This document shows, piece after piece, positions 4,151 to 46,163 of a DNA stretch of 64,000 bases (position 1 is the stretch's first letter; each line of letters begins with the position of its first letter). The notes beneath the pieces were generated by a model, which saw nothing but the letters and a program-made list of their open reading frames with translations, was not told where the DNA came from and ran no database searches. Source of the DNA: Candidatus Bathyarchaeota archaeon. GTDB lineage: Archaea; Thermoproteota; Bathyarchaeia; Bathyarchaeales; Bathycorpusculaceae. The DNA is taken from the NCBI GenBank assembly GCA_963739305.1, contig CAVTZU010000036.1, forward strand, positions 11,284 through 75,283, in the 5' to 3' direction. A program made the position numbers and the translations under genes.

Positions 4151-4313
4151 GACAGGCTGAACCTCGGTTGCAGACAGAATAAGCACAGAGTCGGTGGTAA
4201 AAGCATTTTGGACAAGATCGTGGCGAGGCCAATCGTTCGGATTTTTTATTGACAAGCAATGACGGGAAACGACCAGAAGGGTGGATGTTGGAAAAAGAGG
4301 AAAAAGTGGGTGT

Positions 4314-5639
4314 TTACTTCGATTTTGTCATGTGCACGTTTTTCATCAGAACGTAGGGGCTAAGTGAAGGTGGATCAGCTTCTCCCCACCAATGCACGTG
4401 CTGTCTTTCTTTTGAGACACCCACGATGTTTCCGAGCATCGCGAGAGCATTGTCGCTTAATCGCAGGTCCTTCAGAGATTGTTTAATTTCGCCGTTCTCC
4501 ACGAGGAAAATGCCGTCTCTAGGAATTGTGGAGAAGTCTCCTTTTGCATAGTTCTGAAATCGTGTGTACCAAGTGTTGGTGAGGTAAAGTCCTCTTTTCA
4601 TTTCTTCGAAGAGTTCCTCTTTGCCCATTTCGCCTGCGTCCGTTTCAACGCTCCATGCGCCTGGAGCAATCAGGCCCGCGTTGGCCGTTGTGTCTGTTTT
4701 GAAGATTTTTGCGGTTGAGTTGTTGTGAAGATAGGTCTTGAGCACGCCATGATCAATGATGATGTTCTCTTTTGTGGGAACCCCTTCGTCGTCGAACGTT
4801 CTGTTTGACAACGAGTAAGAGGCGGGGTTGTCTCTCAAAGTCACGATTCGCGGGGCTACCTTTTTGCCAAGTTTGTCGACGAAGATGGACATCTGCGTCA
4901 TGATAGAGTATGCCGAAACCATGCCTGCCCATATGCTAACGATGGAGCCGAAGATCAATGGGTCAAATATTACGTCGAAGGCGCCTTCGTCGCCTATTTT
5001 CGGTTTTCTCGCAAGTTTCGCAATTTGTCCAGCTTTTGTTCCTGCTTTTGAGGGTTTGAAGTCTTTGAGCGTCGAGCTGCATTCGACTCCGTGTCCTGAA
5101 GCTTCTCTCTCTGCGAAGGCTCTGATCGAGAGTTCGATCGAAGATCTCGTGTCGGAGCCTGTTGGTCCTTCGGAGGAAGCCAAGTAAACTCTTTCGAATT
5201 TAGTGAGCAGTATTCCGCCGGTGTCAACTTTTGGTCCCACTTCCACCTTTGCGGCTTCTATGGCTTCGAAGACGTGGTCTGTGAGGTTTTTCAGGTCTTC
5301 AATTCTCTTGTCGGCTTTGCTTTTCGAGTAGTTGAATTTGCCTTTTGCGAATCCTCCGAAAGTTGGGCTTTCACTGGAGACTTTTGCCAATTTCAAGAGT
5401 TGCTTGAGGTTCTTGTCAACGTCGATGAAGTTGTGCATCTGGGTTGCGACTAATCTTTTTTTCCAGGCTAACGCGAGGTCTGTGACGTAGTCGTTCCATG
5501 CGACAGTGATGTCTACCTGATTGTTGCTGAAGCGGACCTGTCGGTATTTGCCCTGTGTCGTCTTGGCGATGACCTCGTCTGCACCTAACTGCTTTGCTTT
5601 TGTCACTATTTCCTGTGTTTTGTTCGCTGTGTCGTTCAT
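4314..5639 (-). CDS. TldD/PmbA family protein (PmbA/TldE-like)
   Basis: FDDEGVPT, GVLKTYLHN, no HExxxH; ATG 5639 overlaps the tldD stop (ATGA). Confidence 0.88.
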   Translation of the reverse strand: MNDTANKTQEIVTKAKQLGADEVIAKTTQGKYRQVRFSNNQVDITVAWNDYVTDLALAWKKRLVATQMHNFIDVDKNLKQLLKLAKVSSESPTFGGFAKGKFNYSKSKADKRIEDLKNLTDHVFEAIEAAKVEVGPKVDTGGILLTKFERVYLASSEGPTGSDTRSSIELSIRAFAEREASGHGVECSSTLKDFKPSKAGTKAGQIAKLARKPKIGDEGAFDVIFDPLIFGSIVSIWAGMVSAYSIMTQMSIFVDKLGKKVAPRIVTLRDNPASYSLSNRTFDDEGVPTKENIIIDHGVLKTYLHNNSTAKIFKTDTTANAGLIAPGAWSVETDAGEMGKEELFEEMKRGLYLTNTWYTRFQNYAKGDFSTIPRDGIFLVENGEIKQSLKDLRLSDNALAMLGNIVGVSKERQHVHWWGEADPPSLSPYVLMKNVHMTKSK

Positions 5640-7054
5640 TTTATGAACACTCCCCTCAGCCTCAAGCATGGGCCACCTGTGTACACTGGGACTCCCTGGG
5701 CTGGATCACCTTTGCCGCAAGTGGCTGCGTCAAATTTTACTTGTTTAGAAACGGCGTCGACTGACGTCCAGAATTTTTTCGTCGTGGTTTCGATGACTGG
5801 TCTAGCAATCGGGGCTTTGACTTCGCCTCTTTCTATGAGGTATGCTTCCCTGCCGACGTAGCGTTGGTTGAATCGTTTGTCATCGATGTTCCATTCGGTG
5901 AAGGATTTCATGTAAATGCCGTGGTCGACGTCTTCAAGTAACTCTTCCTCTGTGAGTTTCCCTGGTAGCACAAACGTGTTTGCCATGCGGACTATTGCTT
6001 CACGGTCGTAGTTTATGGATCTTGAAGAGCCGTTGCTGCGGGTCTTGAGTTTGGCGGCTGATTCTCTGTTTTGAAGGAACTCGTTTATGATGCCGTCTTT
6101 GTACAGGAATCTTCGTTTGGCTTTGACGCCTTCGTCGTCGAACATGTAGTAGCCGTAGCTGTACTCGATCGTGGGGTCATCGACGATTGTGACAGCGTCG
6201 CTGCCTATTCTTGTTCCAACCCAGTAGGGACCGCCTTGGTAGATGAAGGATCTTCCGGCTTGGCTCATCTCGCGGCCCAGAATCCTGTCTGCTTCCATCG
6301 GGTGACCGCACGATTCGTGTGCTGCTATTCCAGCGACTTCTGGACCGCACACAAGGTCGGTTTTTTCAGGTTTGACGGTTTTGGCTTTTGCAATGACGTC
6401 TCTCAGGACTTTTGCGTCGTGGATGAGCTTGTCCGCGACTTTCCATTCTTTGAAAGCTTCCCAACCGCCGCTGCGCCCGAATTGTTCGGAGGCTTGTTCA
6501 GTTTTTCCTTGTTCTTCGACCGTGATGAAGAAGTATGCTCCAATCTTGGGGACGAAAGATGATATTTGTGAGCCTTCGGAGTTTACGTAGTACTTTGTGA
6601 TTAAGTCGATAGAGCATTGTGATATTGTGGCGGGTATTTTGACGCCGCAGGAACTGACTTTTTTGTTGATGTCGGTTAGTGTTTCAATTCTTTCTTCGTT
6701 GGGCACGTTCTGAATTTTCTGATTCTGGTCAACCGTCCATTTTGCTTTGACTGCCTTTTCTTTGGTGAAGGACAGTTTTTGTTCTCTGTTTGCTCTTTTT
6801 GCGTATTTGAAGGCAAGGCCTACGATTTGTTTTGCTTCGGTTTTTGACCACAGGTTTGTTGATGCGAATCCGATCCCGCCGTTGGCCATTATTCTCACGG
6901 AGTATCCGCTATCTACGGCTGAGGCATATGCTTCTAGGTTTCCGTTTCTTAGAATGATTCTGTCGGATGTTTGGGCTTGGCCTCTTACTTCGACGTATTC
7001 AGTTTCTTTGGTTTGTGCGTACTCAAGTGTGTAATCAATCAGGTCTTGTTTCAA
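5636..7054 (-). CDS. tldD: TldD metalloprotease
   Basis: HESCGHPMEADR zinc motif, DDEGV, RMANT, CGKGDPAQ. Confidence 0.92.
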   Translation of the reverse strand: MKQDLIDYTLEYAQTKETEYVEVRGQAQTSDRIILRNGNLEAYASAVDSGYSVRIMANGGIGFASTNLWSKTEAKQIVGLAFKYAKRANREQKLSFTKEKAVKAKWTVDQNQKIQNVPNEERIETLTDINKKVSSCGVKIPATISQCSIDLITKYYVNSEGSQISSFVPKIGAYFFITVEEQGKTEQASEQFGRSGGWEAFKEWKVADKLIHDAKVLRDVIAKAKTVKPEKTDLVCGPEVAGIAAHESCGHPMEADRILGREMSQAGRSFIYQGGPYWVGTRIGSDAVTIVDDPTIEYSYGYYMFDDEGVKAKRRFLYKDGIINEFLQNRESAAKLKTRSNGSSRSINYDREAIVRMANTFVLPGKLTEEELLEDVDHGIYMKSFTEWNIDDKRFNQRYVGREAYLIERGEVKAPIARPVIETTTKKFWTSVDAVSKQVKFDAATCGKGDPAQGVPVYTGGPCLRLRGVFIK

Positions 7055-7273
7055 TTCTTTCCATCCTTTGATACTTTATGTGTGTTTGGGGATGAAGTAT
7101 TTCACTTTGCTGGTTTGTTTTGACTTGTGTTTCTTATGAGTGTCCGTGGTTTGTTATGCACCTTGTTCTAGGTTGGTTTCTGCCATGTTGAGTGTTGAGT
7201 GTTGTAGGATGGAAAATTATTTATCTACCATCATGTGAAGACCATGGATATGATGATGTTTGGAGGAAGATAG

Positions 7274-7444
7274 ATGGCTAAGTGTCCCAAATGTGGAACC
7301 GAAGTTTCAAAACCAAGGAAGACGTGGATGATGGCGGGGCGTCCAGATAAGACTGGAAAAAGGATACAGCTTGAAATAGGGCTTTTCGATTGCCCGAAGG
7401 ATCATAAGCCATTCCGGGAAGTCCTAAGCAAGAAGAAGATTTAG
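7274..7444 (+). CDS. Cren7-like small basic chromatin protein with zinc-ribbon Cys pairs (56 aa)
   Basis: Below the ORF-track cutoff. MAKCPKCGTEVSKPRKTWMMAGRPDKTGKRIQLEIGLFDCPKDHKPFREVLSKKKI; GGAGG at 7262; KTW...IGLF...FR pattern as in Cren7; T-tract follows. Confidence 0.8.
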   Translation: MAKCPKCGTEVSKPRKTWMMAGRPDKTGKRIQLEIGLFDCPKDHKPFREVLSKKKI

Positions 7445-7464
7445 ACAATTCGCCTGATTCTCCG

Positions 7465-7490
7465 TCTTTTTCCCTTTTTTTTGTCTTTTT
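7465..7490 (+). terminator. archaeal oligo-T terminator of the Cren7-like gene
   Basis: TCTTTTTCCCTTTTTTTTGTCTTTTT about 20 nt after the stop. Confidence 0.65.
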
Positions 7491-7543
7491 GGGCGTTAGG
7501 TTTTAAAGTGTGCTTTGGCTAGTGGTCAGGCAAGTTTGGTCTG

Positions 7544-8218
7544 ATGGAAGGTTGTTTGTTGGCTGAATCTAGGGCTAGGCGCGTTTGGAAGAATGAGTAT
7601 TTCCAGACGGCTGTCATGATTTTGGTTATTCTAGGAGTCGTCTGGGGCTTTTGGTATGGTTCTCGTTGGGTGTTGAACACGGATTATCCGATGCTTGCGG
7701 TTGCTTCTGGGAGCATGAGTTTGCCGAAGGGTGTGCCTGATGACGGGTGGTCTCGGCCGTTTGATCCGACGTTGCACACGGGGGATTTGATTTTGATTCA
7801 GGGTGTGAATGCTGACGATGTTTATGCGGCGCCGCTTAATGAGAGCGGGGGGCGATCTGGTGACATCTTGGTGTTTCATGCTCCAGGGAGTGACGAGTTG
7901 ATTGTTCACAGGGCGATTCAGAAGGTCGTGCTGGGTGGGGAGGTTTATTTTGTCACGCAGGGCGATGCTAATCTGGGTCCTGGGCCTTATTCGCCTACTC
8001 CTGCGTCCAGTGTTATCGGGCGTGTTGTGTTGCGAGTTCCTTGGATTGGGCATCTCGCTTTGTATATGAGGAACTCGGCTGGCATCGTGATCATTGTCGT
8101 GTTGATTGCTGTGTTGGTTGTTGTTGAATTTGTTCTTCCCGCGGTTACGCATAAGAAGCCTGAAAACAACGTCGACGAGCACGTTGAGCAGAATCCTGAG
8201 ACTGAGAATCCAATATGA
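7544..8218 (+). CDS. signal peptidase I (archaeal Sec11/SipW type)
   Basis: N-terminal TM, VASGSM (Ser), GDL, IVHR (His), TQGDAN, VIGRVV..P.IG, C-terminal TM. Confidence 0.9.
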   Translation: MEGCLLAESRARRVWKNEYFQTAVMILVILGVVWGFWYGSRWVLNTDYPMLAVASGSMSLPKGVPDDGWSRPFDPTLHTGDLILIQGVNADDVYAAPLNESGGRSGDILVFHAPGSDELIVHRAIQKVVLGGEVYFVTQGDANLGPGPYSPTPASSVIGRVVLRVPWIGHLALYMRNSAGIVIIVVLIAVLVVVEFVLPAVTHKKPENNVDEHVEQNPETENPI

Positions 8219-8502
8219 GCTGTTTGGGTCTTCTCGGTTGAGAGGATACGACTGCTCAAGAACTTAATTGTTGGGGCTTAAGACCCACTAGAAAGGAAGA
8301 GAACGAACCAAGTGAGGAATCTTTCCAGCATTCAACTTGTGAGAACAAAAAACCATCTAGCAGCACTTGTTGCCGTATGGAGAATGACCGAGACAACGGG
8401 AATTCCATAAACTGACCGAACTCGAAATAGAACACTGCAGTTCCTCGAAGAATCCAAGCGGAACCAATAGGATCCACATTACATAGCGCGCGCACTTCAA
8501 CA

Positions 8503-8901
8503 TCAATGGCCAGTCTTCTCAGCAGGCTGAAAAATTCGACAAGCATCCTGCTTTCTCCAAAACTCATTGTCATGGTCATAGTGCCTTGGACACTTCCTCT
8601 TCATATAATAAAGACAGTTTCCACATTCACCTTGCGAATCATAGTCAGTAGCAACCTCCTGTTCAACAGGCTGTGATTTCTCGGTCACTTCTTCCTCGTT
8701 CGTCTTGTCCAGTAGGTCGCAGCCTATTTCGCAATTGCTACGCAATGAGCACTTGTAACAACAAGCGTCTTTGATCGTGTTCTGACACTTGTCTTTTCTC
8801 AGAGCTCCCATGTCAGATTCCTTTATCGCTCGACAGCTGTCGTCTCCAACGAGGAATTCGCATTCGGAAACGCGGTCCTCAACAGTTTTCCTCAACAACA
8901 A
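8503..8901 (-). CDS. Cys-rich hypothetical protein (12 Cys)
   Basis: AAAGGAGGT immediately upstream; two Cys clusters joined by an acidic linker. Confidence 0.65.
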   Translation of the reverse strand: MLLRKTVEDRVSECEFLVGDDSCRAIKESDMGALRKDKCQNTIKDACCYKCSLRSNCEIGCDLLDKTNEEEVTEKSQPVEQEVATDYDSQGECGNCLYYMKRKCPRHYDHDNEFWRKQDACRIFQPAEKTGH

Positions 8902-9085
8902 CCTCCTTTAGTCAGTAGCGCGCGCGGTCAACCAATGACAACTTTAAGGATAGCTTTCTGAAAAGGCTTTTCATCATTGACGTTCCTAAAGCGCTAGGAT
9001 TTTTGGTGGCATTCCAAAACCTTCTTCCATTCATGAACATCACTTAAAATCAATCTTGGTAGCACAAATGCCCGAAGACGTGCTC

Positions 9086-9382
9086 TTAGACTATGAACAA
9101 CAAGAGTACCGAAGAAATCAGGCAGAACAATCCTACTAGGAACATGACAGCGGCCGTTGTCCACAGCTTCTTCCTCGTCGGATAGATGCTGTAAAAGAAG
9201 ATCGAAAAAGCCGACAGGAGAAATGTAACGGCTCCAAGCAACAGCGTAAATTTCAATATGATAGGCGCGGTTTCACCACGGAGACCCGTAATTTGCAGAA
9301 CCGTCAAACTCAGCGCAGCTAGAGTTCCTGGGTAGGACGCGTTCACTATCGGTTTTATGAATTTCTCTTCAAATTCTTCCAT
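9086..9382 (-). CDS. small membrane protein (about 3 TM)
   Basis: ATG start, three hydrophobic segments. Confidence 0.7.
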   Translation of the reverse strand: MEEFEEKFIKPIVNASYPGTLAALSLTVLQITGLRGETAPIILKFTLLLGAVTFLLSAFSIFFYSIYPTRKKLWTTAAVMFLVGLFCLISSVLLLFIV

Positions 9383-9622
9383 AATTCAATCTCTTCCGCA
9401 GCAAATGGCCACGTTGTCGATATTAAGTCGGTCAAGGCTTAAACTTTTTGTGAAATCGACCGCATCAACTTCTTCAAGGTGAGACTAGCGCGCGCTAATT
9501 ATTCTTCTAGAACTGTCCTCTCGATTTTTCCAACATACGTATTTAAGAAACCCGAAATGGCTAATTTCGATAAGGAGACAGGAGAAGGCAGATAGGTGCA
9601 GACGGCTCAGAACGTGCGGAAA

Positions 9623-9808
9623 ATGGACGAAGAGTTTCTAGGAGGTTTCTTAAAATCCTACTCTAAACGCTATCAACAGTGGAAGAGGAAAGACCTTCTT
9701 GTAGTAGCGCTTGAAACGATGCCGAAACAAGTCAACACGGACGATGTCATTGACAACTTGATAAAGTTGAAGTGCGAGTTCTCAAAGAGGCTAAGCTACG
9801 AAGGCTAA
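9623..9808 (+). CDS. small hypothetical protein
   Basis: ORF 9596/9623-9808 with purine-rich GGAGAAGG upstream and TATTTAAG further upstream. Confidence 0.45.
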   Translation: MDEEFLGGFLKSYSKRYQQWKRKDLLVVALETMPKQVNTDDVIDNLIKLKCEFSKRLSYEG

Positions 9809-9960
9809 GTTCTCTAGAACCTTCGAACTGAAAACTCCTTTTCCACGCACCAGCCAAGTCTCGGACACTGAAACCAAGGATAAAACGTAGATTTCTTGTT
9901 TGTACACTGAATTCATAATTCTAATAAACAAAACGGGCAAACTTGACGTGAGAAATTGCA

Positions 9961-10371
9961 ATGAGAATTCTCCGTAGGCAGAACTCAACTTACGCGCTCA
10001 GTCTATTCCTGGTCTTACTGGGAGTTGCGGCACTCCTATTCACGGTCTGGAAAACTTGGCCTCAAGTCTCCTCAGCCACGGATCCCCTCTCAACCTTCAT
10101 GAATCTATTAGGAACTGAAAAACTGGATTTTGTTCCAATTTTTGAATTCAAACTGGTACACCTTTTTGCTTTGGGCGACGCACTGCTAATTTCAGGCGTC
10201 TTGCTGTACATCTTGAGTGTGCAATGGTTTTATCTGCCTGGAAGAATCGTGTGGTTCAGATGCCCGTTCTGCCACAAGGATTGGAGGTCAACGGGAGACA
10301 AGGCACTGGTGCATTGTCCTCATTGCCGCCAACTGGTCCATCCGACTCTGATCGAGAAAAAGGACGCATAG
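9961..10371 (+). CDS. membrane protein with C-terminal zinc ribbon
   Basis: Two TM segments, then CPFC-x12-CPHC. Confidence 0.7.
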   Translation: MRILRRQNSTYALSLFLVLLGVAALLFTVWKTWPQVSSATDPLSTFMNLLGTEKLDFVPIFEFKLVHLFALGDALLISGVLLYILSVQWFYLPGRIVWFRCPFCHKDWRSTGDKALVHCPHCRQLVHPTLIEKKDA

Positions 10372-10483
10372 AAAACCAGCGCCTCTTTCCTTGTAGTATA
10401 GCCCGCGCGCAAACGTCCACGACGTGAGTCAAACATCTCAACGGAACCCTCCATCAGCCCAACGATGTCTCGTTAACGCAAGC

Positions 10484-10622
10484 ACTACATGCAAAACGCA
10501 TCAGAAACCACACCCAGAACCTCAAACAGCCCTCCCGAGCACCCCAAGCCCAGCACCGCACGCGAAAAAAAGGCCGGGGGGTAGGGTGTTTTAGAGCTGA
10601 AAACACTCAAAATCCATGTTGA
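10484..10622 (+). repeat. 139-bp dispersed element, copy 1
   Basis: 49-bp core 10564-10612 identical to 48800-48848; ends ACTACATG...CATGTTGA. Confidence 0.85.
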
Positions 10623-10629
10623 GTAGGCC

Positions 10630-12993
10630 CTAGAACGACCTGTGCTCAGTTCGCTTGATAATCTCGTCCTGCAACTCCTTGCTCAAATTAACAAAGTAAT
10701 CACTGAAACCCGCAACCCTCACCAACAAATCACCATACTTCTCCGGATGCCTCTGCGCCTCACGCAACGTCTCAGCGTTCACCACATTGAACTGAACATG
10801 ATGACCATCAAGCCGAAAATACCCACGAACAAGATTCGCCAACTTACTCAAACCCTCCTCGCTCTCCAACAACTCCGGCGCAAACTTCTGATTCAACAAA
10901 GTCCCACCCGTCCTCACATGATCAATCTTCGAAACCGACTTCACCACGGCCGTCGGACCCTCCCGGTCCGCACCCTGAACGGGCGAAACCCCCTCCGACA
11001 ACGGTTCACCCGCTCTCCGCCCGTCAGCCGAAGCTCCAACCATCTTGCCGAAATAGACGTGCACAGTCGTTGGCAACAAATTAACCCTATACTTGCCGCC
11101 CTTAGTGTTCGGACGCCCATCAATAGCACCAAAATAAGCCTCAAAAACCTCCCGCATCACCGAATCCGCGTAATCATCGTCATTCCCGTACTTCGGCGTC
11201 TTATTCAACAATCGCTGCCGCAGAACCTCGAAGTCCTTAAAATCAGCAGCAAGAGCCTTCAAAAAGTCACGCAACAGAACTTCCTTCCGATCATAAACAT
11301 GATACTTCAAAGCCGCCAAAGAATCTGTAACCGAACCCAGACCAACACCCTGAATATAATTCGTGTTATACCGAGCACCGCCATCATTGTAATCCTTACC
11401 CTTCGAAATGCAATCACTGATCAGAAGAGACAGAAACGGAACAGGAAGGACCTCAGCGTACAACCTCTCAATCACGTTGTTTCCTCTGACTTTCACATCC
11501 ACGAAATACTCAAGCTGCCTCTTGAAAGCGCCAAAAAGCTCCTCAAAAGACCCAAACTCACACGGATTTCCAGTCTCAACCCCAATCTTCTTGCCCGTAC
11601 GCGGGTCAACCCCATTGTTCAAAGCGACTTCAAGCACCTTCGGCAGATTGAAGTAGCCCGTAAGAATGTAACTCTCCTTCCCAAACGCGCCCGTCTCAAC
11701 ACAGCCACTCGCCCCCCCGTTCCTAGCATCCTCAATCGTCTTCCCCTGCCTCAACAACTCCTGAACAATAGCATCCGTGTTGAAAACAGACGGCTGCCCA
11801 AAACCCGTCCTAATAATCTCCAAAGCACACTTGAGAAAACTGTCAGGAGACCTCTTGCTGATCTGAACCATCGACCCAGGCTGCGGAATCCTCATCTCCC
11901 CAATAACATCCAGAATCAAGTAAGAAAGCTCATTCACCGCATCCGAACCATCCCCCTTCACACCGCCCAAGTTGACCAACGCAAAATCATTGTACGTGTT
12001 ACTCTCCTCAGCCGTAACCCCAACCTTCGGCGGCGCCGGCTGATTGTTAAACTTCACCCAGAACAACTCAAGAAGCTCCCTCGCCTTCTCCTTCGTCAAA
12101 CTCCCATCCTCAAGCCCCCTCTTGAAGAAAGGATACAAATGCTGATCCAGCCTCCCCGGGTTGAAAGCGTCCCACGGATTCACTTCCACGATGACACCCA
12201 AATGAATGAACCAATAATGCTGCAGAGCTTCCCAAAAATCCCGCGGAGCATACTTAGGAACCCGACTGCACACATCGACTATTTTCTTAAGCTCCTTCTT
12301 CCTCTTCGCACTCTTCTCTTTCCTAAGCAGCTGCTTCGCTTTCTCAACGTGACGCAATGCGTAGCAAATCAAGGCGTCAGCCGCAATTTGCATCGCCTTG
12401 AGCTCCTCCATCTTCTGGTGCGCGCTCGGATCAACCAGAAAATCCAAACTTTCCATGCTTTTTCTAATATCTTCTTTGAAGTCAACCAAACCTTTCCGAT
12501 AGATTTTGTCGTCCAACGCGGTGTGCCCAGGAGCCCTCTGTTCCAGAAACTCTGTAAAAACACCTGTGCCGTAAGCAGCTTTCCACTCATCAGACATTTC
12601 ATTGAAGACAACGTCCCTGATCGACCTGCCCTTCCAAAAAGGAATAACCCTCTCCCTGTACACCTTTCTGGTCTCCGCATCCACGCCGTAAGGAGTCTTC
12701 TTCCTCGCATCCAGAATCTCCAAGTCACCAAGCGAATGACAGCATATCTCAGGATAAGTCGGGACAAGCTTCGGTCCAGGCCCCCTTTCTCCAACGAGCA
12801 GCTCCCCATCCCCAACGCAAATGTGCTTGTTCTCGAGCAAATGCTTGAACGCCAGTGCTCTTGCAACAGGCGCAGAGACCCGACTCGCAGCATCGCTCTC
12901 ATAGAATTCGGTTATCAGAACAGCCCTCTCCGACGTGATGTATGGCTTCGTCCTGATACTCTCTTCCCTTAAGCGCCTAACTCTCTCGTTCAT
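10630..12993 (-). CDS. hypD: glycyl radical enzyme, trans-4-hydroxy-L-proline dehydratase type
   Basis: PTYPEICCH, EQRAPGH, WDAF, KFNNQPAPPKVG, ESxTYxDF, GCVE, LTGY, LPTT, RVAG(F): motifs recalled from clostridial HypD. Confidence 0.85.
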   Translation of the reverse strand: MNERVRRLREESIRTKPYITSERAVLITEFYESDAASRVSAPVARALAFKHLLENKHICVGDGELLVGERGPGPKLVPTYPEICCHSLGDLEILDARKKTPYGVDAETRKVYRERVIPFWKGRSIRDVVFNEMSDEWKAAYGTGVFTEFLEQRAPGHTALDDKIYRKGLVDFKEDIRKSMESLDFLVDPSAHQKMEELKAMQIAADALICYALRHVEKAKQLLRKEKSAKRKKELKKIVDVCSRVPKYAPRDFWEALQHYWFIHLGVIVEVNPWDAFNPGRLDQHLYPFFKRGLEDGSLTKEKARELLELFWVKFNNQPAPPKVGVTAEESNTYNDFALVNLGGVKGDGSDAVNELSYLILDVIGEMRIPQPGSMVQISKRSPDSFLKCALEIIRTGFGQPSVFNTDAIVQELLRQGKTIEDARNGGASGCVETGAFGKESYILTGYFNLPKVLEVALNNGVDPRTGKKIGVETGNPCEFGSFEELFGAFKRQLEYFVDVKVRGNNVIERLYAEVLPVPFLSLLISDCISKGKDYNDGGARYNTNYIQGVGLGSVTDSLAALKYHVYDRKEVLLRDFLKALAADFKDFEVLRQRLLNKTPKYGNDDDYADSVMREVFEAYFGAIDGRPNTKGGKYRVNLLPTTVHVYFGKMVGASADGRRAGEPLSEGVSPVQGADREGPTAVVKSVSKIDHVRTGGTLLNQKFAPELLESEEGLSKLANLVRGYFRLDGHHVQFNVVNAETLREAQRHPEKYGDLLVRVAGFSDYFVNLSKELQDEIIKRTEHRSF

Positions 12994-13914
12994 TTATCCT
13001 CCACCTATCTTCACGTTTAAACCGAAATCCTCGAGACTCAGCATAATCCTCTTCAACCGCTCATCCGACGGGGACTCGACCTTGTTCAACCCATATCTTC
13101 TACCTAGGCTCCTGTACTTCTCGATTCCGGCTCTGTGATAAGGAAGAACCTGTATGTCTCCAACTCCGTTCCTGCGCAAGAAATCGCCCATCTCAGCTAC
13201 GTTCTCGTTATCATCATTCACACCTGAAATTACCGGAAAACGAACCAGAATACTGCGACCGCTGTTCGCCAGTCTAGCGAAGTTTCCCAAAATCAACCTG
13301 TTCGAAACACCCGTATACCTCTTATGAACCCAATCATTCATGACTTTAAGATCATAAAGAAACAGGTCAACCTTTTCCACGACCTTGTCAAAATCCTCGC
13401 GAGATGCATACCCACAAGTCTCCAACGCTGTATGAATACCTTCTTTTTCGCATCCCTTCAGGAGCTCCTTCAAAAAATCGACTTGCATAAGCGGTTCTCC
13501 ACCAGAAAAAGTAACGCCTCCATTCGATTCCTCAAAAAAAACTTTGTCCTTGACAATTTCCTCCAAGACCGCCTCTACGCCCAGTTTCTTGCCAACAACT
13601 TCGATTGCACCGGTCGGGCACTTCCCATTACACTTGCCACACAGATCGCAAAGTTTCCGGTCTATCGACACCAGTCTCCTTGATAACGCCAGGGCTCCTC
13701 TCGGACAGGCTTTTGAACATTCTTGGCACCCAATGCACTTGTTCTTCCGGTACATCAACTCAGGCTTCAGAATCTGTCCTTCAGGGTTATGACACCACAA
13801 GCAACGAAGGGGACAGCCCTTCAAAAATATGGTGGAGCGGATGCCAGGTCCGTCGTCAACTGCATACCTCTTGATTTCAAAAACAAAACCCTCTGTCGTC
13901 GTTGCACTCACCAA
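12994..13914 (-). CDS. glycyl-radical activating enzyme (radical SAM with 2x[4Fe-4S] ferredoxin insert)
   Basis: DGPGIRST, GCPLRCLWCHNPE, two CxxCxxCxxxCP motifs, SGGEP, LPYH; abuts hypD. Confidence 0.93.
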   Translation of the reverse strand: MVSATTTEGFVFEIKRYAVDDGPGIRSTIFLKGCPLRCLWCHNPEGQILKPELMYRKNKCIGCQECSKACPRGALALSRRLVSIDRKLCDLCGKCNGKCPTGAIEVVGKKLGVEAVLEEIVKDKVFFEESNGGVTFSGGEPLMQVDFLKELLKGCEKEGIHTALETCGYASREDFDKVVEKVDLFLYDLKVMNDWVHKRYTGVSNRLILGNFARLANSGRSILVRFPVISGVNDDNENVAEMGDFLRRNGVGDIQVLPYHRAGIEKYRSLGRRYGLNKVESPSDERLKRIMLSLEDFGLNVKIGGG

Positions 13915-39360: not shown

Positions 39361-40728
39361 TTGACCTGCATGTTTCGAAGGATTCACTTAGGAAGGATTC
39401 ACTTAGGAATCACGGTTCCGAAAAAAGGCTACTTGGCCGCGGGACTGCTGCTTCGACTGTTTCTAGCGCCTTTTCTGAGTCACCCGTTCGACATGAGGAT
39501 ATTCATGGCGGTGGGCGTAGCGGTGTCGCGAGGAGTGACCCCGTACGGTCAATACGTCCTCCAAGACCTGTTCGTAACAATGCCTCATCCCAACCTCTAC
39601 GGTGTGTTTCCGGGCATCGGTTACCCGCCGCTATGGGGTTTGATGTGCGGCGCAGCTTACGAGATTTCATCGTTCCTCGCTCCAAACAACCTTTACGCGT
39701 ACGTTCTTGCGCTGAAGATTCCGATAATCATCGGTGAGCTGGCTCTTGCAGTGTTGGTTTACAATATCTTGAGGAAGCAGACAAACGAGAGAATCGCGAC
39801 TGCGACCTACTTGCTATTCATTTTCTGTCCGTTCATCCTCGCTGTAGGCACGATTTGGGGCATGTTTGACGCCATCGCGCTTCTCTTCGCTTTGCTTGCA
39901 GCCTACGGTTTGCTGAACGATTGGAAGCTTTCAGCGATCTTCCTTTCTGTGTCCTCGATCCTGAAGGTCTTTCCACTGGTTCTCGTCCCACTGTACAGTA
40001 TACTGCTTTACAGGGCCATGCGAAAGTGGAAGCCCGCGGTTGCCTATGCTGGCTTCACAGTGGGCTTGACAGCTCTCTTCACTATTCTGCCTATGCTGGT
40101 TTTCAGCTGGCCCATATCCAACCTGTACAATGCCTTGGCATATCACGTGACGACCTCAGAGTCTACATACAACAGCCTTGCAAGTTTTCCCTATGGAGCC
40201 GCGAGCCCGTTCAACTTGTTCACTCTGGCGAGTAACTTGAGCAACGGCGCCGTTCAACCTCCTTCGGCGCTGATCTACCTCTGGATACCGGCGTGCATCG
40301 AGATCTACCTGTCGTTGTGGAGGGCACCCGCGAACCCCACGGTGCAGGCTTTTGGGGCCAACAAGGACTTCGCTTGGACCGTTCAATGGTCTCTTCTATT
40401 GTTGCTCATGTTTTTTACGACGCGGGTCTGGGTTTCCGAGCAGAACCTGATCTTTCTTTTCGCGTTTTTCACGCTGAGCGTCTTCCTGCAGCATCCGCAG
40501 GAGCTGGACCGAGTTCAGTTGTTGTGGCTTCTGCTGTTCATATTCGTGCTCGTACACGTGCCGATGGTGTCCTTCTTCTGGCTACCGGTTCCTTGGACGC
40601 TGACGGCGGCCAGCTCTTTTGCTGATGGACCCTTCGGGTGGACACGGCTGCTGCTGATGACCATCTTAACGTTCGGCTGGCTTGCAATGTGTTGGCACTA
40701 CAGCATCAAAAAGTTGAGGTGGCATTGA
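39361..40728 (+). CDS. GT-C fold integral membrane glycosyltransferase (GT87/PIG-M-like)
   Basis: HPFD, YPPLW, KIP.I..E, WG.FD, LK.FP; many TM segments. Confidence 0.75.
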   Translation: MTCMFRRIHLGRIHLGITVPKKGYLAAGLLLRLFLAPFLSHPFDMRIFMAVGVAVSRGVTPYGQYVLQDLFVTMPHPNLYGVFPGIGYPPLWGLMCGAAYEISSFLAPNNLYAYVLALKIPIIIGELALAVLVYNILRKQTNERIATATYLLFIFCPFILAVGTIWGMFDAIALLFALLAAYGLLNDWKLSAIFLSVSSILKVFPLVLVPLYSILLYRAMRKWKPAVAYAGFTVGLTALFTILPMLVFSWPISNLYNALAYHVTTSESTYNSLASFPYGAASPFNLFTLASNLSNGAVQPPSALIYLWIPACIEIYLSLWRAPANPTVQAFGANKDFAWTVQWSLLLLLMFFTTRVWVSEQNLIFLFAFFTLSVFLQHPQELDRVQLLWLLLFIFVLVHVPMVSFFWLPVPWTLTAASSFADGPFGWTRLLLMTILTFGWLAMCWHYSIKKLRWH

Positions 40729-41879
40729 TGAAGGTGTTGACGTTGCTCTTGCACGACGAGAGGTTCAGCGGCTGGACTCTGAGAGACAAGCTCACTCGCC
40801 ATCACTTTTCACTGCAGTACATGCAGCATTACAGGCAAAAGAACGCAGAGCCTCTGCTTTACACTTTCCATCAGCAAATCGACTCGAAGAAGACTTTCCG
40901 GATTGATAACGTGGGCACTGTGAAGGTCTTTCCGGTTGAGGTTCGTTTTCCGCCGTTTCTCCGCTTCGGCAACGATCACAACCCACGACAGATAACGAGA
41001 GAAATGCTTTCGGATCAGCCTGACCTGGTTCATTTTCACAATTACTACTTGGCTTCGTTTCCTTACGTGGCTGCTTTTGTCAAGAAGAAGCTGCGAAGAC
41101 CGTTGATTGCACAACTGCACGGGTACGATAATCGTTCACTTCGAAAATGGCTGTACCTGCCCTGCTTGCTGGCTTTGAGGCACGCGGATAAGATACTTTA
41201 CAGTTACGAGCCCGAGCGAGAAGTGTACCGAAAGCTAGGTGTCCTAGAAAGGGCGAAGAAGCTTCCTGTGCCTGGGGTTGATCCAGCGATCTTCAGGCCG
41301 GAGAGGCGGTTTCCGGCGCAGAGGTTCCTGTACGTTGGGAGGATTCCGGCTCCTGAAGCAGCGCATGGCGAGAAATCTCCGTATTTGCTGATTCAGATTT
41401 TGAAGAAGCTTCTTCACCGCTCGAAAGAGGTGGGGTTGGACATCGTGGGCGATGGTCCTGGGTTGCAGCGAACTCGTGAGCTCGTTAGGAGTCTTGGGAT
41501 CTCGGAGCATGTGGCGTTTCATGGTTACGTGCCGAACCGTGATCTGCCCAAGTATTATCATGCTGCGGCGTTGACTTTTTCGCCGATCCAGGTTTACGAT
41601 GTCGACGGATGGTTTGACGGTTCGATACAGGAGAGCCTCGCGTGTGGGACACCGGTGGCTGCCTTCAAGGCGTCGCGGAGAACGCCTTTGCATGGAACCT
41701 ATGGGTTCTTGTTATCGAATGACGCTGAGAGAGCGGCGGTTGAGCTGCACGGGCTGCTGAAGAGATCTGAGGATATGGATGAGGTTGCGGCGGAAGGTTC
41801 GCGTTTTGTGAGGGAGAATTGTTCTTGTGAAACCGTGGTTTCTGAGCTTGGGAAGACTTTGGAGAGTGTGTGCGGTTGA
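40728..41879 (+). CDS. glycosyltransferase family 4
   Basis: PDLVHFH, PGVD, FLYVGRI, IVGDGP, ESLACGTPV. Confidence 0.88.
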   Translation: MKVLTLLLHDERFSGWTLRDKLTRHHFSLQYMQHYRQKNAEPLLYTFHQQIDSKKTFRIDNVGTVKVFPVEVRFPPFLRFGNDHNPRQITREMLSDQPDLVHFHNYYLASFPYVAAFVKKKLRRPLIAQLHGYDNRSLRKWLYLPCLLALRHADKILYSYEPEREVYRKLGVLERAKKLPVPGVDPAIFRPERRFPAQRFLYVGRIPAPEAAHGEKSPYLLIQILKKLLHRSKEVGLDIVGDGPGLQRTRELVRSLGISEHVAFHGYVPNRDLPKYYHAAALTFSPIQVYDVDGWFDGSIQESLACGTPVAAFKASRRTPLHGTYGFLLSNDAERAAVELHGLLKRSEDMDEVAAEGSRFVRENCSCETVVSELGKTLESVCG

Positions 41880-42796
41880 AGTTGAGCATAATTGTTTGTG
41901 CCTATAATGAGGAGAAGTCGATTGGTCCTCTATTGGAGAACCTCCTGTTGCAAGATGTTCCTCCGGAGGTGGACGATCGTGAAATAGTCGTTGTTGCCTC
42001 AGGCTGCACGGACAGGACGGAAAGGGTTGTGGAGGAACGGGCTAGGATGGATCCGAGGATCAGGTTGATTTCCGAGCCTGAGAGGTCTGGTAAGGCTACG
42101 GCGTTGAACAAGGCGTTTGAGGCTTCGTCGGGTGGTTACATCGCTTTGATTCCGGCGGATGTTTTTCTCGCGGAGAACGCTTTGTTTAGTCTGCTTGTTC
42201 CGTTTAGAGATCGCGGTGTGTCGGCTGTGAGTGGTCGTCCGATGCAGGATCCTAATCGGGTTCCTGAGGGTTTCTCTGGTTACTTGGCGAACATGACTTT
42301 CAGGCTGTGGGCCAGGTTGATGTCGAAACTGAATGATAGGGGGGAGATGGCTCATTGCAGCGGTGAGTTTATGGCGATTAGGAGTGATGTGAAGACCGAT
42401 ATTCCGTGTGATTGCGCTGCGGACGATTCTTACATTGCTATCGCGGCGAAAAGGAAGGGCCACATCAAGTTTGCTTCGAAGGCTGTTTGTTACAATTTGA
42501 GGCCTTCAAACGTTGCTGATTACATCAATCAGAGACGAAGGTGGCTTTACGGGCATTTTCAGACGAAAAGGATGACTGGTGAGTACCCGACGGTGCTGGA
42601 CACCGTGGTCCTGTCGAAGCCTAGTGTGGCTTTGAGGGTTTTGGCTGAGGAGGTTACGGAGCAGCCGAGGACGGCTGGTTACCTGGCTTGTGCGATTCTG
42701 GTTGAAGGGGTTATTTATGCGCTGTCGATGTTTGATCGGCTTGTTAATCGGCGCTATGGTGTGTGGCCTGTGATCAAGTCTACAAAGTTTACGTGA
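41870..42796 (+). CDS. glycosyltransferase family 2 (processive type, QRRRW)
   Basis: AYNEE, GKATALN, ADD, QRRRW. Confidence 0.88.
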   Translation: MRLKLSIIVCAYNEEKSIGPLLENLLLQDVPPEVDDREIVVVASGCTDRTERVVEERARMDPRIRLISEPERSGKATALNKAFEASSGGYIALIPADVFLAENALFSLLVPFRDRGVSAVSGRPMQDPNRVPEGFSGYLANMTFRLWARLMSKLNDRGEMAHCSGEFMAIRSDVKTDIPCDCAADDSYIAIAAKRKGHIKFASKAVCYNLRPSNVADYINQRRRWLYGHFQTKRMTGEYPTVLDTVVLSKPSVALRVLAEEVTEQPRTAGYLACAILVEGVIYALSMFDRLVNRRYGVWPVIKSTKFT

Positions 42797-42807
42797 GTGT
42801 GCGTGTG

Positions 42808-43614
42808 ATGAGCAAACTGTGTGTTGTTGTTCCGACGTATAATGAGGCTGAGAACCTTCCAAGACTCGTTGGGCAGATCGAGGAGACGTTGCGTGGTTTG
42901 AGTTTCAAGCTGATAGTGGTTGACGACAGCAGCCCTGATGGCACGGCGAGAGTGGCTGAACAGTTGAATGCAGTGCACGGGAACATTCTCGTGAAGTCGA
43001 GACGTGCCAAGTCTGGTCTGGGTTCAGCTATTCAAGCAGGCCTCAGGGCTGCTCTGGAGATGGAGGACGTGGAGAGCGTCTTGACGTTGGACGCGGATTT
43101 GTCGCACGACCCTGGTGAGATTCCGAAGCTTCTCCGTGCGAGTCAGCAGGCGGATCTTGTTCAGGGAAGCCGGTACGTCGAAGATGGCAGAGCCGTTGGA
43201 TGGAGTTTCAGGAGAAGATTAGTTAGTTGTGTTGCTAACCTGGTTTGCAGGATGCTTCTGCGGATGTCGGTTCACGATTGCACGGGTAACTTCAGAGTCT
43301 ACTCGAGAAAGTGCGCTGAGGCGATTGTGAGTTCTGCGGTTGAGCGAGGTTTTGAATGGGTCGTTGAGGCTTTGTTTATTGCTAAGAAGCATCAGCTTGT
43401 TGTCAAGGAAGTGCCTATCGCCTTTGTGAACAGGAAAGATGGCGAGACCAAATTGAAGGGCAAGGACATCGTGAACTGGGCCTTCTTCACGGGGAAGAGC
43501 CTCTTTTCATTAAGACCGTTTTCCAGTATGCCCGTTCAGGTTAACAGTACTATTTGCAAGTCGTCGGCTCTGAGTGTGACGTTGACTGCGCCGCCTGCTT
43601 CTACGACGAAATAG
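42808..43614 (+). CDS. polyprenol-phosphate mannose synthase-like GT2
   Basis: PTYNEAEN, VDDSSPDGT, DADLSHDP, GSRY, DCTGNFR. Confidence 0.9.
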   Translation: MSKLCVVVPTYNEAENLPRLVGQIEETLRGLSFKLIVVDDSSPDGTARVAEQLNAVHGNILVKSRRAKSGLGSAIQAGLRAALEMEDVESVLTLDADLSHDPGEIPKLLRASQQADLVQGSRYVEDGRAVGWSFRRRLVSCVANLVCRMLLRMSVHDCTGNFRVYSRKCAEAIVSSAVERGFEWVVEALFIAKKHQLVVKEVPIAFVNRKDGETKLKGKDIVNWAFFTGKSLFSLRPFSSMPVQVNSTICKSSALSVTLTAPPASTTK

Positions 43615-44318
43615 ACGCTTTCCAGCAGGTCGCCTGGCTTGAGTTGCCATGCGTTGTTAATGCAGGAAGTTAGGTTCAGCTGGTAGCTTTTCCACTGGTT
43701 TTGGGACAGTTGATCGATCTTGTACTCGACCACGTCTCCGCCTTTGTAGATTATGTTGCCGCCTTGTTGAATGTTGCCCGATGGGTTGGCGAGAGCTGTG
43801 GGGCTGTCCCAGAGGTCCATTTCGGTGTAGACCACCGAGCTGTCGCTTCGTTGCACGGCGCAGGCGAAGGCGATACGTAGCCATTCGTTTCCAACGGTCA
43901 GGTCCGCATTAGCCAGGACGGCTCGAAAACTTGCCGCCACTTGAACTGGTCCTGAAGTGTAGAGGGGAAGTTTTTGTCTAGTTATGAAACTTGTTGTCCA
44001 CCATGCACCGGTCGCAATGTGCCCGGCTTCGTTTGCAGATGTTTTCAGGCGCATCTCTGTTTCATTGATGAATGTGATTGTCCAACTGGAAGCGTTCGTG
44101 AGCCCTACTGTATGCGGGTTCCAAACTTTCGCGTTCTGTTCAGGATTGAGTGAGAGGTCGCCATCGGTGTTTATCACTTCCAGGTTTTTTGACACCAAGT
44201 CTTTCTGTGAGAACTGTTGTGCTCCTCGGGTGGCGTTGCCTGAGACGGGAATGTTGGCCAACGATAGAGTTGGCAGACTCACTAGTATCATTAAGACTAA
44301 TGAGTAGTAGTTTCGCAT
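43536..44318 (-). CDS. secreted hypothetical protein (beta-rich, possibly carbohydrate-binding)
   Basis: Signal-peptide-like N-terminus; Trp/Asn-rich; 3' end overlaps the convergent GT2. Confidence 0.7.
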   Translation of the reverse strand: MRNYYSLVLMILVSLPTLSLANIPVSGNATRGAQQFSQKDLVSKNLEVINTDGDLSLNPEQNAKVWNPHTVGLTNASSWTITFINETEMRLKTSANEAGHIATGAWWTTSFITRQKLPLYTSGPVQVAASFRAVLANADLTVGNEWLRIAFACAVQRSDSSVVYTEMDLWDSPTALANPSGNIQQGGNIIYKGGDVVEYKIDQLSQNQWKSYQLNLTSCINNAWQLKPGDLLESVYFVVEAGGAVNVTLRADDLQIVLLT

Positions 44319-46114: not shown

Positions 46115-46163
46115 GTCATGCTTGGCAAGTTTTCTTGACCTGAACCTGTTCAGTAGCGCGCGC

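Follow-up and report, generated by a model that had tools for sequence, protein, structure and literature searches.

Why does the composition of one DNA strand switch from G+T-rich to A+C-rich within a few kilobases of this archaeal contig, irrespective of the direction of the genes, and what marks the switch? The window analysed here is a stretch of 64,000 nt from a peat archaeon, Candidatus Bathyarchaeota archaeon (contig CAVTZU010000036.1, assembly GCA_963739305.1). The initial annotation described the switch near 8.2–10.4 kb (site 1) from hand counts. It inferred a site that repeatedly exposes 3' single-stranded DNA, by recurrent break resection or recombination, fork convergence or strand displacement, with a 139-bp element at its edge.

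Strand composition at the two sites of the window

The observation of a switch that ignores gene direction is confirmed and is stronger than first described. The three counts of G+T per 60 nt (42, 40 and 16) are exact. In 500-nt windows, the keto skew of the + strand is +0.14 to +0.34 at 4501-8000, about 0 (-0.09 to +0.02) at 8001-10500 and -0.30 to -0.25 at 10501-12000, after which it fades to -0.14 at 13501-14000. The features of the window are as follows, with gene families assigned by Pfam profile searches.

4300..8218, left arm of site 1, + strand G+T-rich, strongest next to 8.2 kb and fading into Lhr
4314..5669 (-), PmbA/TldD-family metallopeptidase gene (PF19289 and PF19290), coding strand A+C-rich
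5636..7054 (-), TldD-family gene (Pfam), coding strand A+C-rich
7544..8218 (+), signal-peptidase-like membrane protein gene without Pfam match, coding strand G+T-rich
8219..10400, compositionally neutral junction with small ORFs without Pfam matches and four GCGCGC runs
10485..10621 (+), element copy 1, a 137-nt unit that abuts the stop codon of the glycyl-radical gene
10400..13914, right arm of site 1, + strand A+C-rich, fading over about 3.5 kb
10630..12993 (-), PFL-like glycyl-radical enzyme gene (PF02901 and PF01228), coding strand G+T-rich at four-fold sites
10642..12972 (+), in-register antisense ORF of 776 codons without Pfam match
12994..13914 (-), glycyl-radical activating enzyme gene (radical SAM), weaker skew
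40638..47830, left arm of site 2, + strand G+T-rich over genes of both orientations, interrupted by a recently exchanged, unskewed segment
47831..54556, right arm of site 2, + strand A+C-rich
48721..48857 (+), element copy 2 (137 nt), between the DUF1616 gene and the Fer4/HdrA-like cluster
56458..56594 (-), element copy 3 (137 nt), of the subfamily with conserved flanks, without adjacent skew, forming a convergent pair with copy 2

The bias resides at four-fold degenerate and non-coding sites. On the + strand, the keto skew at four-fold sites is +0.26 in PmbA, +0.47 in TldD and +0.65 in the signal peptidase gene, as compared to -0.70 in the glycyl-radical enzyme and -0.20 in the activase on the other side of the junction, while codon positions 1+2 move by at most 0.13. 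Non-coding stretches show the same signs (+0.38 at 7055-7273, +0.39, then -0.27). The bias also declines with distance inside single genes, with values of -0.62/-0.40/-0.41 for the thirds of TldD, -0.42/-0.20/-0.19 for the thirds of PmbA and +0.51/+0.79/+0.73/+0.77 for the quarters of the glycyl-radical enzyme gene, the 3' end of which lies at the element. At site 2, the switch is abrupt and falls within non-coding DNA near 47.83 kb, with a four-fold skew in the right arm of -0.60 to -0.66 that fades to -0.18. Here, however, the A+C-rich domain begins about 0.9 kb upstream of the element.

Two details of the initial annotation needed correction: the gene called hypD encodes a PFL-like glycyl-radical enzyme, and the element unit is 137 rather than 139 nt. 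The gene, which was said to contain no TTA, CTA or TCA codon, has TTA 1, CTA 0 and TCA 0 in 788 codons, as compared to a genome mean of 2.9%; 1 of 796 long genes has none. Its four-fold sites consist of A 4-5%, C 10%, G 45% and T 40% on the coding strand, and the antisense ORF is thus a by-product of A-poor third codon positions and not a gene. The statement that the G+T-rich strand has its 3' end at the junction holds.

The skew arose in place. Syntenic orthologs in 5-6 genomes of the same genus are unskewed: the TldD orthologs in four of these (G001, G002, G008 and G009) have values of -0.10 to +0.01, and the signal peptidase gene, which is conserved in 6 congeners at 62-70% identity, has values of -0.03 to +0.15. 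In the metagenome contig of the closest relative, L126 (89% nucleotide identity), the signal peptidase value is +0.17. Four-fold differences between L126 and this genome are directional on the + strand (G/A 49 vs 10, T/C 31 vs 14, T/A 14 vs 3, C/A 15 vs 2), whereas they are symmetric in the control gene Lhr (16 vs 21 and 7 vs 9). Polarization with an outgroup is weak, since four-fold sites are saturated and only 27 and 34 sites were polarized.

These comparisons bear on the possibility that the skewed blocks are horizontally acquired DNA from a donor with asymmetric strands, an inverted replichore segment, or a product of mis-assembly or mis-binning. The genome is a 36-contig metagenome bin with 7.8% contamination, and the segment at 44.2-47.3 kb is indeed recently exchanged. 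However, the recently exchanged radical SAM gene is the unskewed one, the skew is graded rather than block-like, and arms change sign within one contig. Independent metagenome contigs (L126-L131) share the order Lhr-PmbA-TldD-signal peptidase, and L126 also shares most of the junction, the first ~280 nt of which is here the remnant of a small gene truncated by a ~420-nt deletion relative to L126. Foreign origin or artifact is largely refuted and is considered highly improbable.

A repeat family at the head of one-sided domains

The element belongs to a genus-restricted family with 26 copies in this genome. The unit of 135-138 nt has inverted ends of 8-9 nt, and copy 1 consists of a degenerate 5' inverted repeat, a 71-nt A+C-rich spacer, an A7 tract plus G-rich core, a short hairpin and a 3' inverted repeat. 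By our reading, a start codon at the 5' end is kept in only about half of the copies. The G+T-rich core remains 90-100% conserved inside strongly A+C-driven surroundings, which implies selection on it.

We compared the composition of the flanks of the 26 copies to random placement. The 2 kb downstream averages a keto skew of -0.193, against a null of 0.001 with a standard deviation of 0.017 (z = -11). In total, 17 of 26 copies are below -0.15 (null mean 1.1, maximum 8 in 5000 trials) and 0 of 26 are above +0.15, while the upstream side is near neutral (-0.045). Within 3 kb downstream, 29 co-oriented genes average a four-fold keto skew of -0.44 on the element strand and 29 anti-oriented genes -0.32, and none exceeds +0.3. 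Genome-wide, there are 96 domains of 1.5-6.7 kb that cover 238 kb, and 16 of the 37 strongest sharp onsets lie within 1.2 kb of a copy. The other 21 have no element, including the left arm of site 1. The absolute skew exceeds 0.25 in 2.3% of 1-kb windows here, as compared to 0.3% in a 400-kb sample of G001, which has no element hit. Among 12 diverged copies in two other genomes, G003 and G004, about 4-5 show the same polarity and none shows a strong opposite skew.

The conditions that the initial annotation had set as refuting its view were examined, and none was fulfilled: the skew follows neither gene strand nor amino-acid content, it has a gradient, and it co-locates with the repeat far beyond chance. 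Its interpretation is nevertheless only partly supported. The polarity is that expected for 3' single-stranded tails, as in yeast resection clusters (PMC6786661), but the average effect is one-sided and depends on orientation, so that the unit is not a two-sided break site. Fork convergence does not explain a decay over a few kilobases, and strand displacement from the element predicts the opposite polarity.

Site 1 is best read as two back-to-back one-sided domains. The left arm has no element in this genome, but a related lineage (contigs L127/L128) carries an inverted family member directly after the stop codon of the signal peptidase gene, exactly at the head of the left arm, pointing into genes with skews of +0.87 (signal peptidase) and -0.62. 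A copy is absent from this position in L126 and in this genome, which has lost it or has another driver there.

Nine of the 26 copies have no clear skew domain (downstream 2 kb not below -0.15). Eight of them belong to a nine-copy subfamily with conserved flanks, of which the ninth member, at 19.6 kb on contig C23, does show skew (-0.21). That these copies lack skew because they are young is an assumption. The nine share a conserved ~40-nt upstream stretch that resembles, by our reading, a BRE/TATA, and four of them have a T5 run about 35 nt downstream.

This raises the alternative that the asymmetry is linked to transcription, with the element acting either as a strong promoter or small-RNA gene whose read-through transcripts run into the domain, or as a terminator or roadblock for transcripts that arrive from it, and with strand-biased damage or repair during transcription writing the skew. 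The lack of clear skew at eight of the nine promoter-like copies would fit termination without read-through, the opposite strand of the core carries a T7 run, several genes end exactly at the element, and 78 of the 106 strongly skewed genes in the genome are A+C-rich on the coding strand. Transcription-associated skews of either sign are reported in eukaryotes. However, since co-oriented and anti-oriented genes carry the same sign, half the genes would need dominant antisense transcription over kilobases. Moreover, the skew falls inside single ORFs, and the skew-associated copies show, by our reading, no conserved promoter-like motif upstream. With expression assumed from gene identity only, the coding-strand values at four-fold sites are -0.02 to +0.45 in the L3-L2 ribosomal-protein operon, which is expected to be highly transcribed, -0.41 in EF-1alpha, and +0.07 and +0.69 in two EF-2 paralogs. 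We consider the transcription models unlikely.

Alternatively, the domains may pre-exist for another reason, with the element inserting into them preferentially and in a fixed orientation, for example by targeting DNA that is often single-stranded. Orientation-specific insertion on one replication strand is established for IS200/IS605-type elements, and the element looks mobile, being multi-copy, with inverted repeats and presence/absence differences between lineages. However, the mean profile steps at the element, from -0.04 upstream to -0.22 downstream, so that the element marks the head of the domain and is not scattered inside it, and eight of the nine conserved-flank copies sit in unskewed DNA. 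At the signal peptidase locus, the strength of skew tracks the presence of the element (+0.87 with it in L127/L128, +0.17 without it in L126), and no IS200-type TnpA or TnpB was found in the genome, which is 97% complete. Such reverse causality is considered improbable.

Finally, selection might keep one strand free of G and T, for example to give unstructured transcripts or single-stranded DNA, or to bind a protein. The skew is extreme (T 4-6% and G 10-12% at four-fold sites on the A+C-rich strand) and stable at some loci across several species. However, it covers non-coding DNA and genes of both orientations alike, decays smoothly with distance, and appears and disappears between close relatives at housekeeping genes, and no function for a kilobase-scale A+C strand is apparent. 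This explanation is considered very improbable.

An inferred one-sided processing of DNA

Our analysis demonstrates that the bias is mutational in kind and positional, independent of genes, anchored to the element and one-sided, that it arose in place, and that it recurs in other lineages, whereas the reading of its polarity and the mechanism are inferred from sequence alone, including any nicks, breaks, single-stranded DNA or fork pausing. In the explanation that we tentatively favor, the repeat acts in cis and in one direction, imposing a strand-asymmetric substitution pressure over the 3-6 kb on its 3' side, such that its own strand becomes A+C-rich and the complementary strand G+T-rich. 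The element's strand would be recurrently removed 5'-to-3' and resynthesized from a nick, a one-ended break or an arrested replication fork at the element. The complementary strand, whose 3' end faces the element, would then be transiently single-stranded, its lesions at A and C would be copied and fixed, and variable tract length would give the gradient. In this view, the right domain of site 1 is driven by the copy at 10485-10621, and the left one was driven by a copy now missing, or by an unidentified driver.

The G+T-rich strand always has its 3' end at the head, which is the pattern of 5'-to-3' resection clusters in yeast, where top-strand C's are mutated on the left and G's on the right, with one-sided clusters from unidirectional resection (PMC6786661). 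This polarity argues against strand displacement and against simple transcription models. NurA homologs are present in the genome (2 matches), but no protein partner of the element was identified. MutS was not found, which argues against a variant with nick-directed mismatch repair. Transversions away from A also contribute, so that pure deamination is insufficient, and the convergent pairing of copies is not predicted by a simple nick model.

It remains possible, although this is also tentative, that the element is a new kind of cis-acting, polar DNA-processing site in Bathyarchaeia, a programmed nick or polar fork-arrest site built around a conserved A-tract plus G-run core. At each generation it would leave a single-stranded or resynthesized tract of several kilobases on one side only, and over evolutionary time this would write a directional mutational shadow strong enough to reshape the codon usage, and slightly the protein composition, of whatever genes lie there. 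Insertions and losses would then switch local mutation spectra on and off between close relatives.

Strand asymmetry is usually read as a chromosome-scale signature of replication or a gene-scale signature of transcription, whereas here the position and orientation of a short repeat predict which strand of the next 3-6 kb will be driven to as little as 4% A at four-fold sites on the G+T-rich strand (A plus C together about 15%). If the cause is recurrent one-sided strand removal or fork arrest, these elements are natural reporters of DNA-end or fork processing in an uncultured archaeal class where no genetics exists. They would be the first case known to us in which a repeat family sets local mutation spectra in a cellular genome. 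In practice, such domains distort predictors of expression or HGT based on codon usage, create long spurious antisense ORFs and can mislead skew-based origin prediction in archaeal genome bins.

Comparison with known strand asymmetries and elements

We found no description of such element-anchored local skew in the library searched. Replication-associated asymmetry likewise sets G+T against A+C at synonymous and non-coding sites irrespective of gene direction, and the sign change seen here along the + strand is that of a bacterial terminus. However, that asymmetry persists along whole replichores with one or a few switches per chromosome, whereas the domains observed here are many, mostly one-sided, anchored to a repeat and decay to about zero within 3-6 kb, with an amplitude about ten-fold above the large-scale skew seen in a complete congener. 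In transcription-associated asymmetry, which is also of kilobase scale and polar from a start point, the sign follows the genes, whereas here it does not follow gene direction and shows no consistent relation with expression as assumed from gene identity.

Vertebrate mitochondria show a gradient of A-to-G and C-to-T on the exposed strand with distance from a fixed site, near-saturated four-fold skew and an A+C-rich complementary strand (PMC9561281; PMC11792237). That is an organelle with strand-displacement replication, whereas this is a cellular chromosome with many sites, in which displacement starting at the element would expose the strand opposite to the G+T-rich one.

Strand-coordinated mutation clusters from DSB resection in yeast follow the same polarity rule, the mutated strand being the 3'-ended one, are of kilobase scale, and occur in two-sided and one-sided forms (PMC6786661). 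In agreement with this rule, the top strand in the window is depleted of C (and A) on the left and of G (and T) on the right. However, the two arms meet at one point only at site 2, near 47.83 kb, while they are 2.2 kb apart at site 1, and the average copy has a near-neutral upstream side. The yeast clusters are single events in single cells under APOBEC or alkylation stress, whereas the present pattern is an evolutionary near-equilibrium composition at fixed, recurrent sites, with A loss stronger than C loss.

Polar replication fork barriers (Tus-Ter, Fob1-RFB, RTS1) are also short cis elements with an orientation-dependent effect, and Ter sites face each other, as do the neighboring copies here: of 7 pairs within 21 kb, 6 are convergent, 0 divergent and 1 tandem (P(at least 6) = 0.0002 under random placement). 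These pairs are only 8-21 kb apart, the similarity concerns arrangement and the one-sided profile rather than a barrier protein or fork pausing, and we know of no mutational shadow reported for such barriers.

Miniature inverted-repeat transposable elements (MITEs) share with the 137-nt element its short, non-coding, multi-copy nature, terminal inverted repeats, genus-restricted distribution and presence or absence at orthologous sites. No target-site duplication or autonomous partner was established: six long-range pairs of the end motifs were found, none with extended matching ends, in a metagenome bin of the type from which repeats are often missing, and the transposase search covered TnpB and IS200 TnpA only. 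The element differs in that one half is a selected, highly conserved G-rich core and the other a free-running A+C-rich spacer of fixed length, and we know of no MITE reported to imprint a directional skew on its flank.

Strand composition and gene content at the two sites

The window is contig C36:11284-75283 of a genome that is a 2.32-Mb bin of 36 contigs, belongs to Bathyarchaeia, by the names given to the sources of close TldD homologs, and is found mainly in peat and wetland metagenomes. The initial annotation had counted 42, 40 and 16 G+T per 60 nt in three segments by hand, and all three counts are exact. The strand-composition switch it described was confirmed. We calculated the keto skew, (G+T-A-C)/N, of the + strand in 500-nt windows and obtained values of +0.14 to +0.34 at 4.5-8.0 kb, close to zero at 8.0-10.5 kb and -0.30 to -0.25 at 10.5-12 kb, fading to -0.14 by 14 kb. 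A second, stronger site was identified at 41-54 kb, with an abrupt switch inside non-coding DNA near 47.83 kb. The genes at the first site are as follows.

1271-4255, - strand: Lhr helicase
4314-5669, - strand: PmbA
5636-7054, - strand: TldD
7544-8218, + strand: conserved membrane protein, called a signal peptidase in the initial annotation (hereafter signal peptidase), without a Pfam hit but conserved in six congeners
10630-12993, - strand: PFL-like glycyl-radical enzyme
12994-13914, - strand: radical-SAM activase of the glycyl-radical enzyme

The bias is positional rather than genic. At four-fold degenerate sites, expressed on the + strand, the skew is +0.26 in PmbA, +0.47 in TldD and +0.65 in the signal peptidase, as compared to -0.70 in the glycyl-radical enzyme and -0.20 in the activase to the right of the junction, while codon positions 1+2 shift by no more than 0.13. 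Non-coding stretches carry the same sign and size, with values of +0.38, +0.39 and then -0.27 at the first site, and +0.32, -0.31 and -0.33 at the second site. The skew declines with distance inside single ORFs and continues across a change of gene orientation, from +0.70/+0.60 in the signal peptidase through 0.62/0.40/0.41 in TldD and 0.42/0.20/0.19 in PmbA to about 0 in Lhr.

The glycyl-radical gene has only 4-5% A and 10% C at four-fold sites, and uses TTA once and CTA and TCA never in 788 codons, against a genome mean of 2.9%. This is why an in-register antisense ORF of 776 codons stays open; this ORF has no Pfam match. The best matches of the glycyl-radical enzyme outside the genus are bacterial (Aminicenantes and others, 71% identity), which suggests an old inter-domain transfer of the gene family.

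Alternating GC runs of 6-13 nt (GCGCGC type) occur about 900 times in the genome, which is about three times as often as other G+C hexamer palindromes. Of these, 70-80% lie outside our gene calls, although only 17% of the genome is non-coding, and they have no flanking consensus. In the window they were recorded at 8486, 8918, 9488, 10405, 26029, 46156, 46723 and 47761, and seven of the intergenic ones in the window sit in the two junctions.

Comparison with related lineages

The gene order Lhr-PmbA-TldD-signal peptidase is conserved through the genus. In five or six congeners, with 62-85% amino-acid identity, the orthologs of PmbA, TldD, the signal peptidase and the glycyl-radical enzyme have four-fold skews near zero, mostly within ±0.15, with the exception of TldD in the congener G004, at -0.22. 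Lhr, in contrast, has a coding-strand four-fold skew of +0.24 to +0.40 in six congeners, but of about 0 here and in the metagenome contig L126, and the left arm seems to have cancelled an older, opposite skew. The contig L126 is 89% identical in DNA over 8.2 kb with the same synteny, and has a skew of only +0.17 in the signal peptidase and -0.09 in TldD. The skew therefore arose in place.

The four-fold differences between this genome and L126 in the three skewed genes are strongly directional on the + strand.

Four-fold differences between this genome and L126 in the three skewed genes, + strand (this genome / L126: count; reverse)
G / A: 49; 10
T / C: 31; 14
T / A: 14; 3
C / A: 15; 2
G / T: 16; 5

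In the neighboring control gene Lhr the differences are symmetric, 16 vs 21 and 7 vs 9. The main component is therefore loss of A, and next of C, on the G+T-rich strand, mostly by transitions but not only; the contribution of transversions is unexplained. Polarization of the substitutions with an outgroup was weak, since four-fold sites are saturated and too few sites remained. On the branch to this genome, changes from A/C to G/T numbered 14 against 7 in reverse, and on the L126 branch they numbered 4 against 20.

Relative to L126, this genome lacks about 420 nt right after the stop codon of the signal peptidase. The missing stretch includes the start and the signal peptide of a small secreted-protein gene, of which the 3' part remains as a remnant (window 8219-8500). 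Contigs from four DNA sequencing runs consisted of short multi-strain pieces without reliable joints, with summed depths that cannot be read as copy number, and were uninformative for the mechanism.

The repeat and its association with skew

A repeat was identified in 26 copies in the genome, which in most copies measures exactly 137 nt between CAACAT and ATGTTG. It consists of terminal inverted repeats of 8-9 nt, a spacer of fixed length (71 nt in the copies that we counted) that is A+C-rich but free in sequence, a conserved A7 tract followed by a G-rich core and a T run, and a short variable hairpin. The copies in the window are as follows.

10485-10621, + strand: copy of the repeat
48721-48857, + strand: copy of the repeat
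56458-56594, - strand: copy of the repeat

The repeat matches no Rfam family. No family was recovered at gathering score over the whole window, only a chance-level miRNA hit at E = 4 was obtained on the element, and no tRNA genes were found. Prediction with RNAalifold on 24 copies gave only the terminal stem and a weak A/T-closed hairpin, at -3.6 and -2.0 kcal/mol on the two strands, and a highly structured RNA is thus not supported. A frame of 31 codons from the 5' repeat to a TAG in the core exists in some copies, but by our reading the start codon is kept in only about half, and this frame is probably not coding. The repeat is restricted to this genus, with hits in 4 of 10 congeners and in 0 of 30 other relatives searched. 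A search for the core motif in 1.0 Mb of Bathyarchaeia TldD loci recovered only the copy in the L127/L128 lineage, known from metagenome contigs, and one doubtful hit, and eleven congener loci held none.

Oriented by the element, the 2 kb downstream have a mean keto skew of -0.193, as compared to 0.001 with a standard deviation of 0.017 under random placement (z = -11). In total, 17 of the 26 copies are below -0.15 (null mean 1.1, maximum 8 in 5000 trials) and none is above +0.15. The 2 kb upstream average -0.045, and the mean profile steps at the element and decays to zero by 4-5 kb. Of the 37 strongest sharp onsets of the right polarity, 16 lie within 1.2 kb of a copy, although a few of these are mirror hits on the other side of the same copy, and the 21 onsets without an element are unexplained. 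An all-against-all BLAST search of the 37 onset windows for a shared motif gave a single match of 30 nt. A template scan for head-to-tail polarity of all domains gave only a modest excess, 32 vs 17 at a score of 0.32 or above, and since short block-like domains match from both ends, this was not used as evidence.

Genes within 3 kb downstream split into 29 co-oriented and 29 anti-oriented genes, with a mean four-fold skew on the element strand of -0.44 and -0.32, respectively, and none exceeds +0.3. Models based on transcription only thus fail for half of the genes, which would need dominant antisense transcription over kilobases. If expression is assumed from gene identity, they also would not fit the ribosomal-protein operon, which is at -0.02 to +0.45 on the coding strand, or the EF-2 paralog at +0.69. 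At contigs C32:71475-73697 and C13:50219-52417, and at C23:54527-56000, there are two EF-2 paralogs, one with a four-fold skew of +0.69 next to an element copy and one with +0.07, and a thermosome gene that is interrupted by an in-frame TAG. With 7.8% contamination in the bin, the paralogs could come from two strains.

Nine copies share conserved flanks, and eight of them have no clear skew. The other 17 all do, including the copy at C28:16.8 kb, for which the adjacent gene is at -0.78. The copies with conserved flanks may simply be younger, but this is an assumption. Neighboring copies within 21 kb are convergent in 6 of 7 pairs, with none divergent (P for at least 6 convergent = 0.0002 under random placement). 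A composite mobile element was considered, but the gene content between the six convergent pairs is unrelated, with 4 weak cross-hits among 75 proteins.

Diverged copies in the congeners G003 and G004 show the same downstream polarity in about 4-5 of 12 cases, and none shows a strong opposite skew. In G004, two copies (locus L119 on contig C239 and locus L114 on contig C105) are followed within about 60 nt by what by our reading looks like the 3' end of a tRNA gene on the opposite strand. The lineage L127/L128 is about 81% identical in TldD, and has a skew of +0.87 in its signal peptidase and -0.62 in its TldD. Directly after the stop codon of the signal peptidase it carries an inverted member of the family, which points into the skewed genes and which, by our reading of the reverse complement and the spacing, has the 5' repeat, a 71-nt A+C spacer, and an A7 tract plus G5-A-G6-AGG core. 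Neither this genome nor L126 has a copy there. The first site is therefore best read as two back-to-back one-sided domains, of which the driver of the left one has been lost from this genome or is unidentified.

At the second site, the Fer4/HdrA-like cluster is skewed here (-0.65, -0.66, -0.41). It is also skewed, more weakly, in G004, G003, G009, G005 and G007, but not in G001, G002 or G008 (-0.15 to +0.23). The domain starts 0.9 kb upstream of its copy, for which we have no explanation. The segment at 44200-47300 is 90-97% identical to contigs of G004 and G008, where the rest of the window is 66-79% identical, and looks like a recent exchange. Its radical SAM/SPASM gene (44948-46114) is the one unskewed gene inside the left arm of this site. 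In a 400-kb sample of the complete congener G001, which has no element hit, |skew| > 0.25 was observed in 0.3% of the 1-kb windows, as compared to 2.3% here. These genomes are kin, and the comparisons are thus not independent tests.

Inferred mechanism and comparison with known systems

These results show a substitution bias that is cis-acting, orientation-dependent, one-sided, distance-graded, gene-independent and tied to the element, whereas the process that generates it, including any nicks, breaks, arrested forks or exposure of single-stranded DNA, is inferred. The interpretation in the initial annotation, a site that repeatedly exposes 3' single-stranded DNA through recurrent break resection or recombination, fork convergence, or strand displacement, is supported in part.

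In every domain the G+T-rich strand has its 3' end at the head. If the bias comes from damage to a transiently single-stranded strand, with loss of A and C, three processes fit the polarity: 5'-to-3' removal of the element's strand from a nick or a one-ended break, resection of the nascent lagging strand at forks arrested at the element, and related excision-resynthesis tracts. This is the polarity rule documented for resection clusters in yeast, including one-sided clusters from unidirectional resection (PMC6786661). Strand displacement, rolling-circle or transfer-type processes starting at the element would expose the other strand, as would R-loops of transcripts leaving it. NurA (two matches) and NucS are encoded, while MutS was not found in this 97%-complete bin. 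The convergent pairing of copies is what a polar fork barrier would predict and a simple nick would not. We leave these variants together as one family of explanations, which we hold only tentatively.

No report of repeat-anchored local skew was found in full-text literature searches, which did not extend to supplements, and no paper was recovered on GC skew and replication origins in Bathyarchaeia. A 2026 survey of archaeal skews attributes them mainly to gene-strand bias and translation, and contains neither the word "repeat" nor "Bathyarchae". Among the closest known phenomena, polar fork barriers and MITEs represent the same kind of element, although a mutational shadow is not known to us for either. 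Replication skew is the same kind of bias, but the scale and the number of sites are wrong. The mitochondrial single-strand gradient follows the same gradient logic with the opposite geometry. Strand-coordinated clusters born from resection have the same polarity, but are single events.
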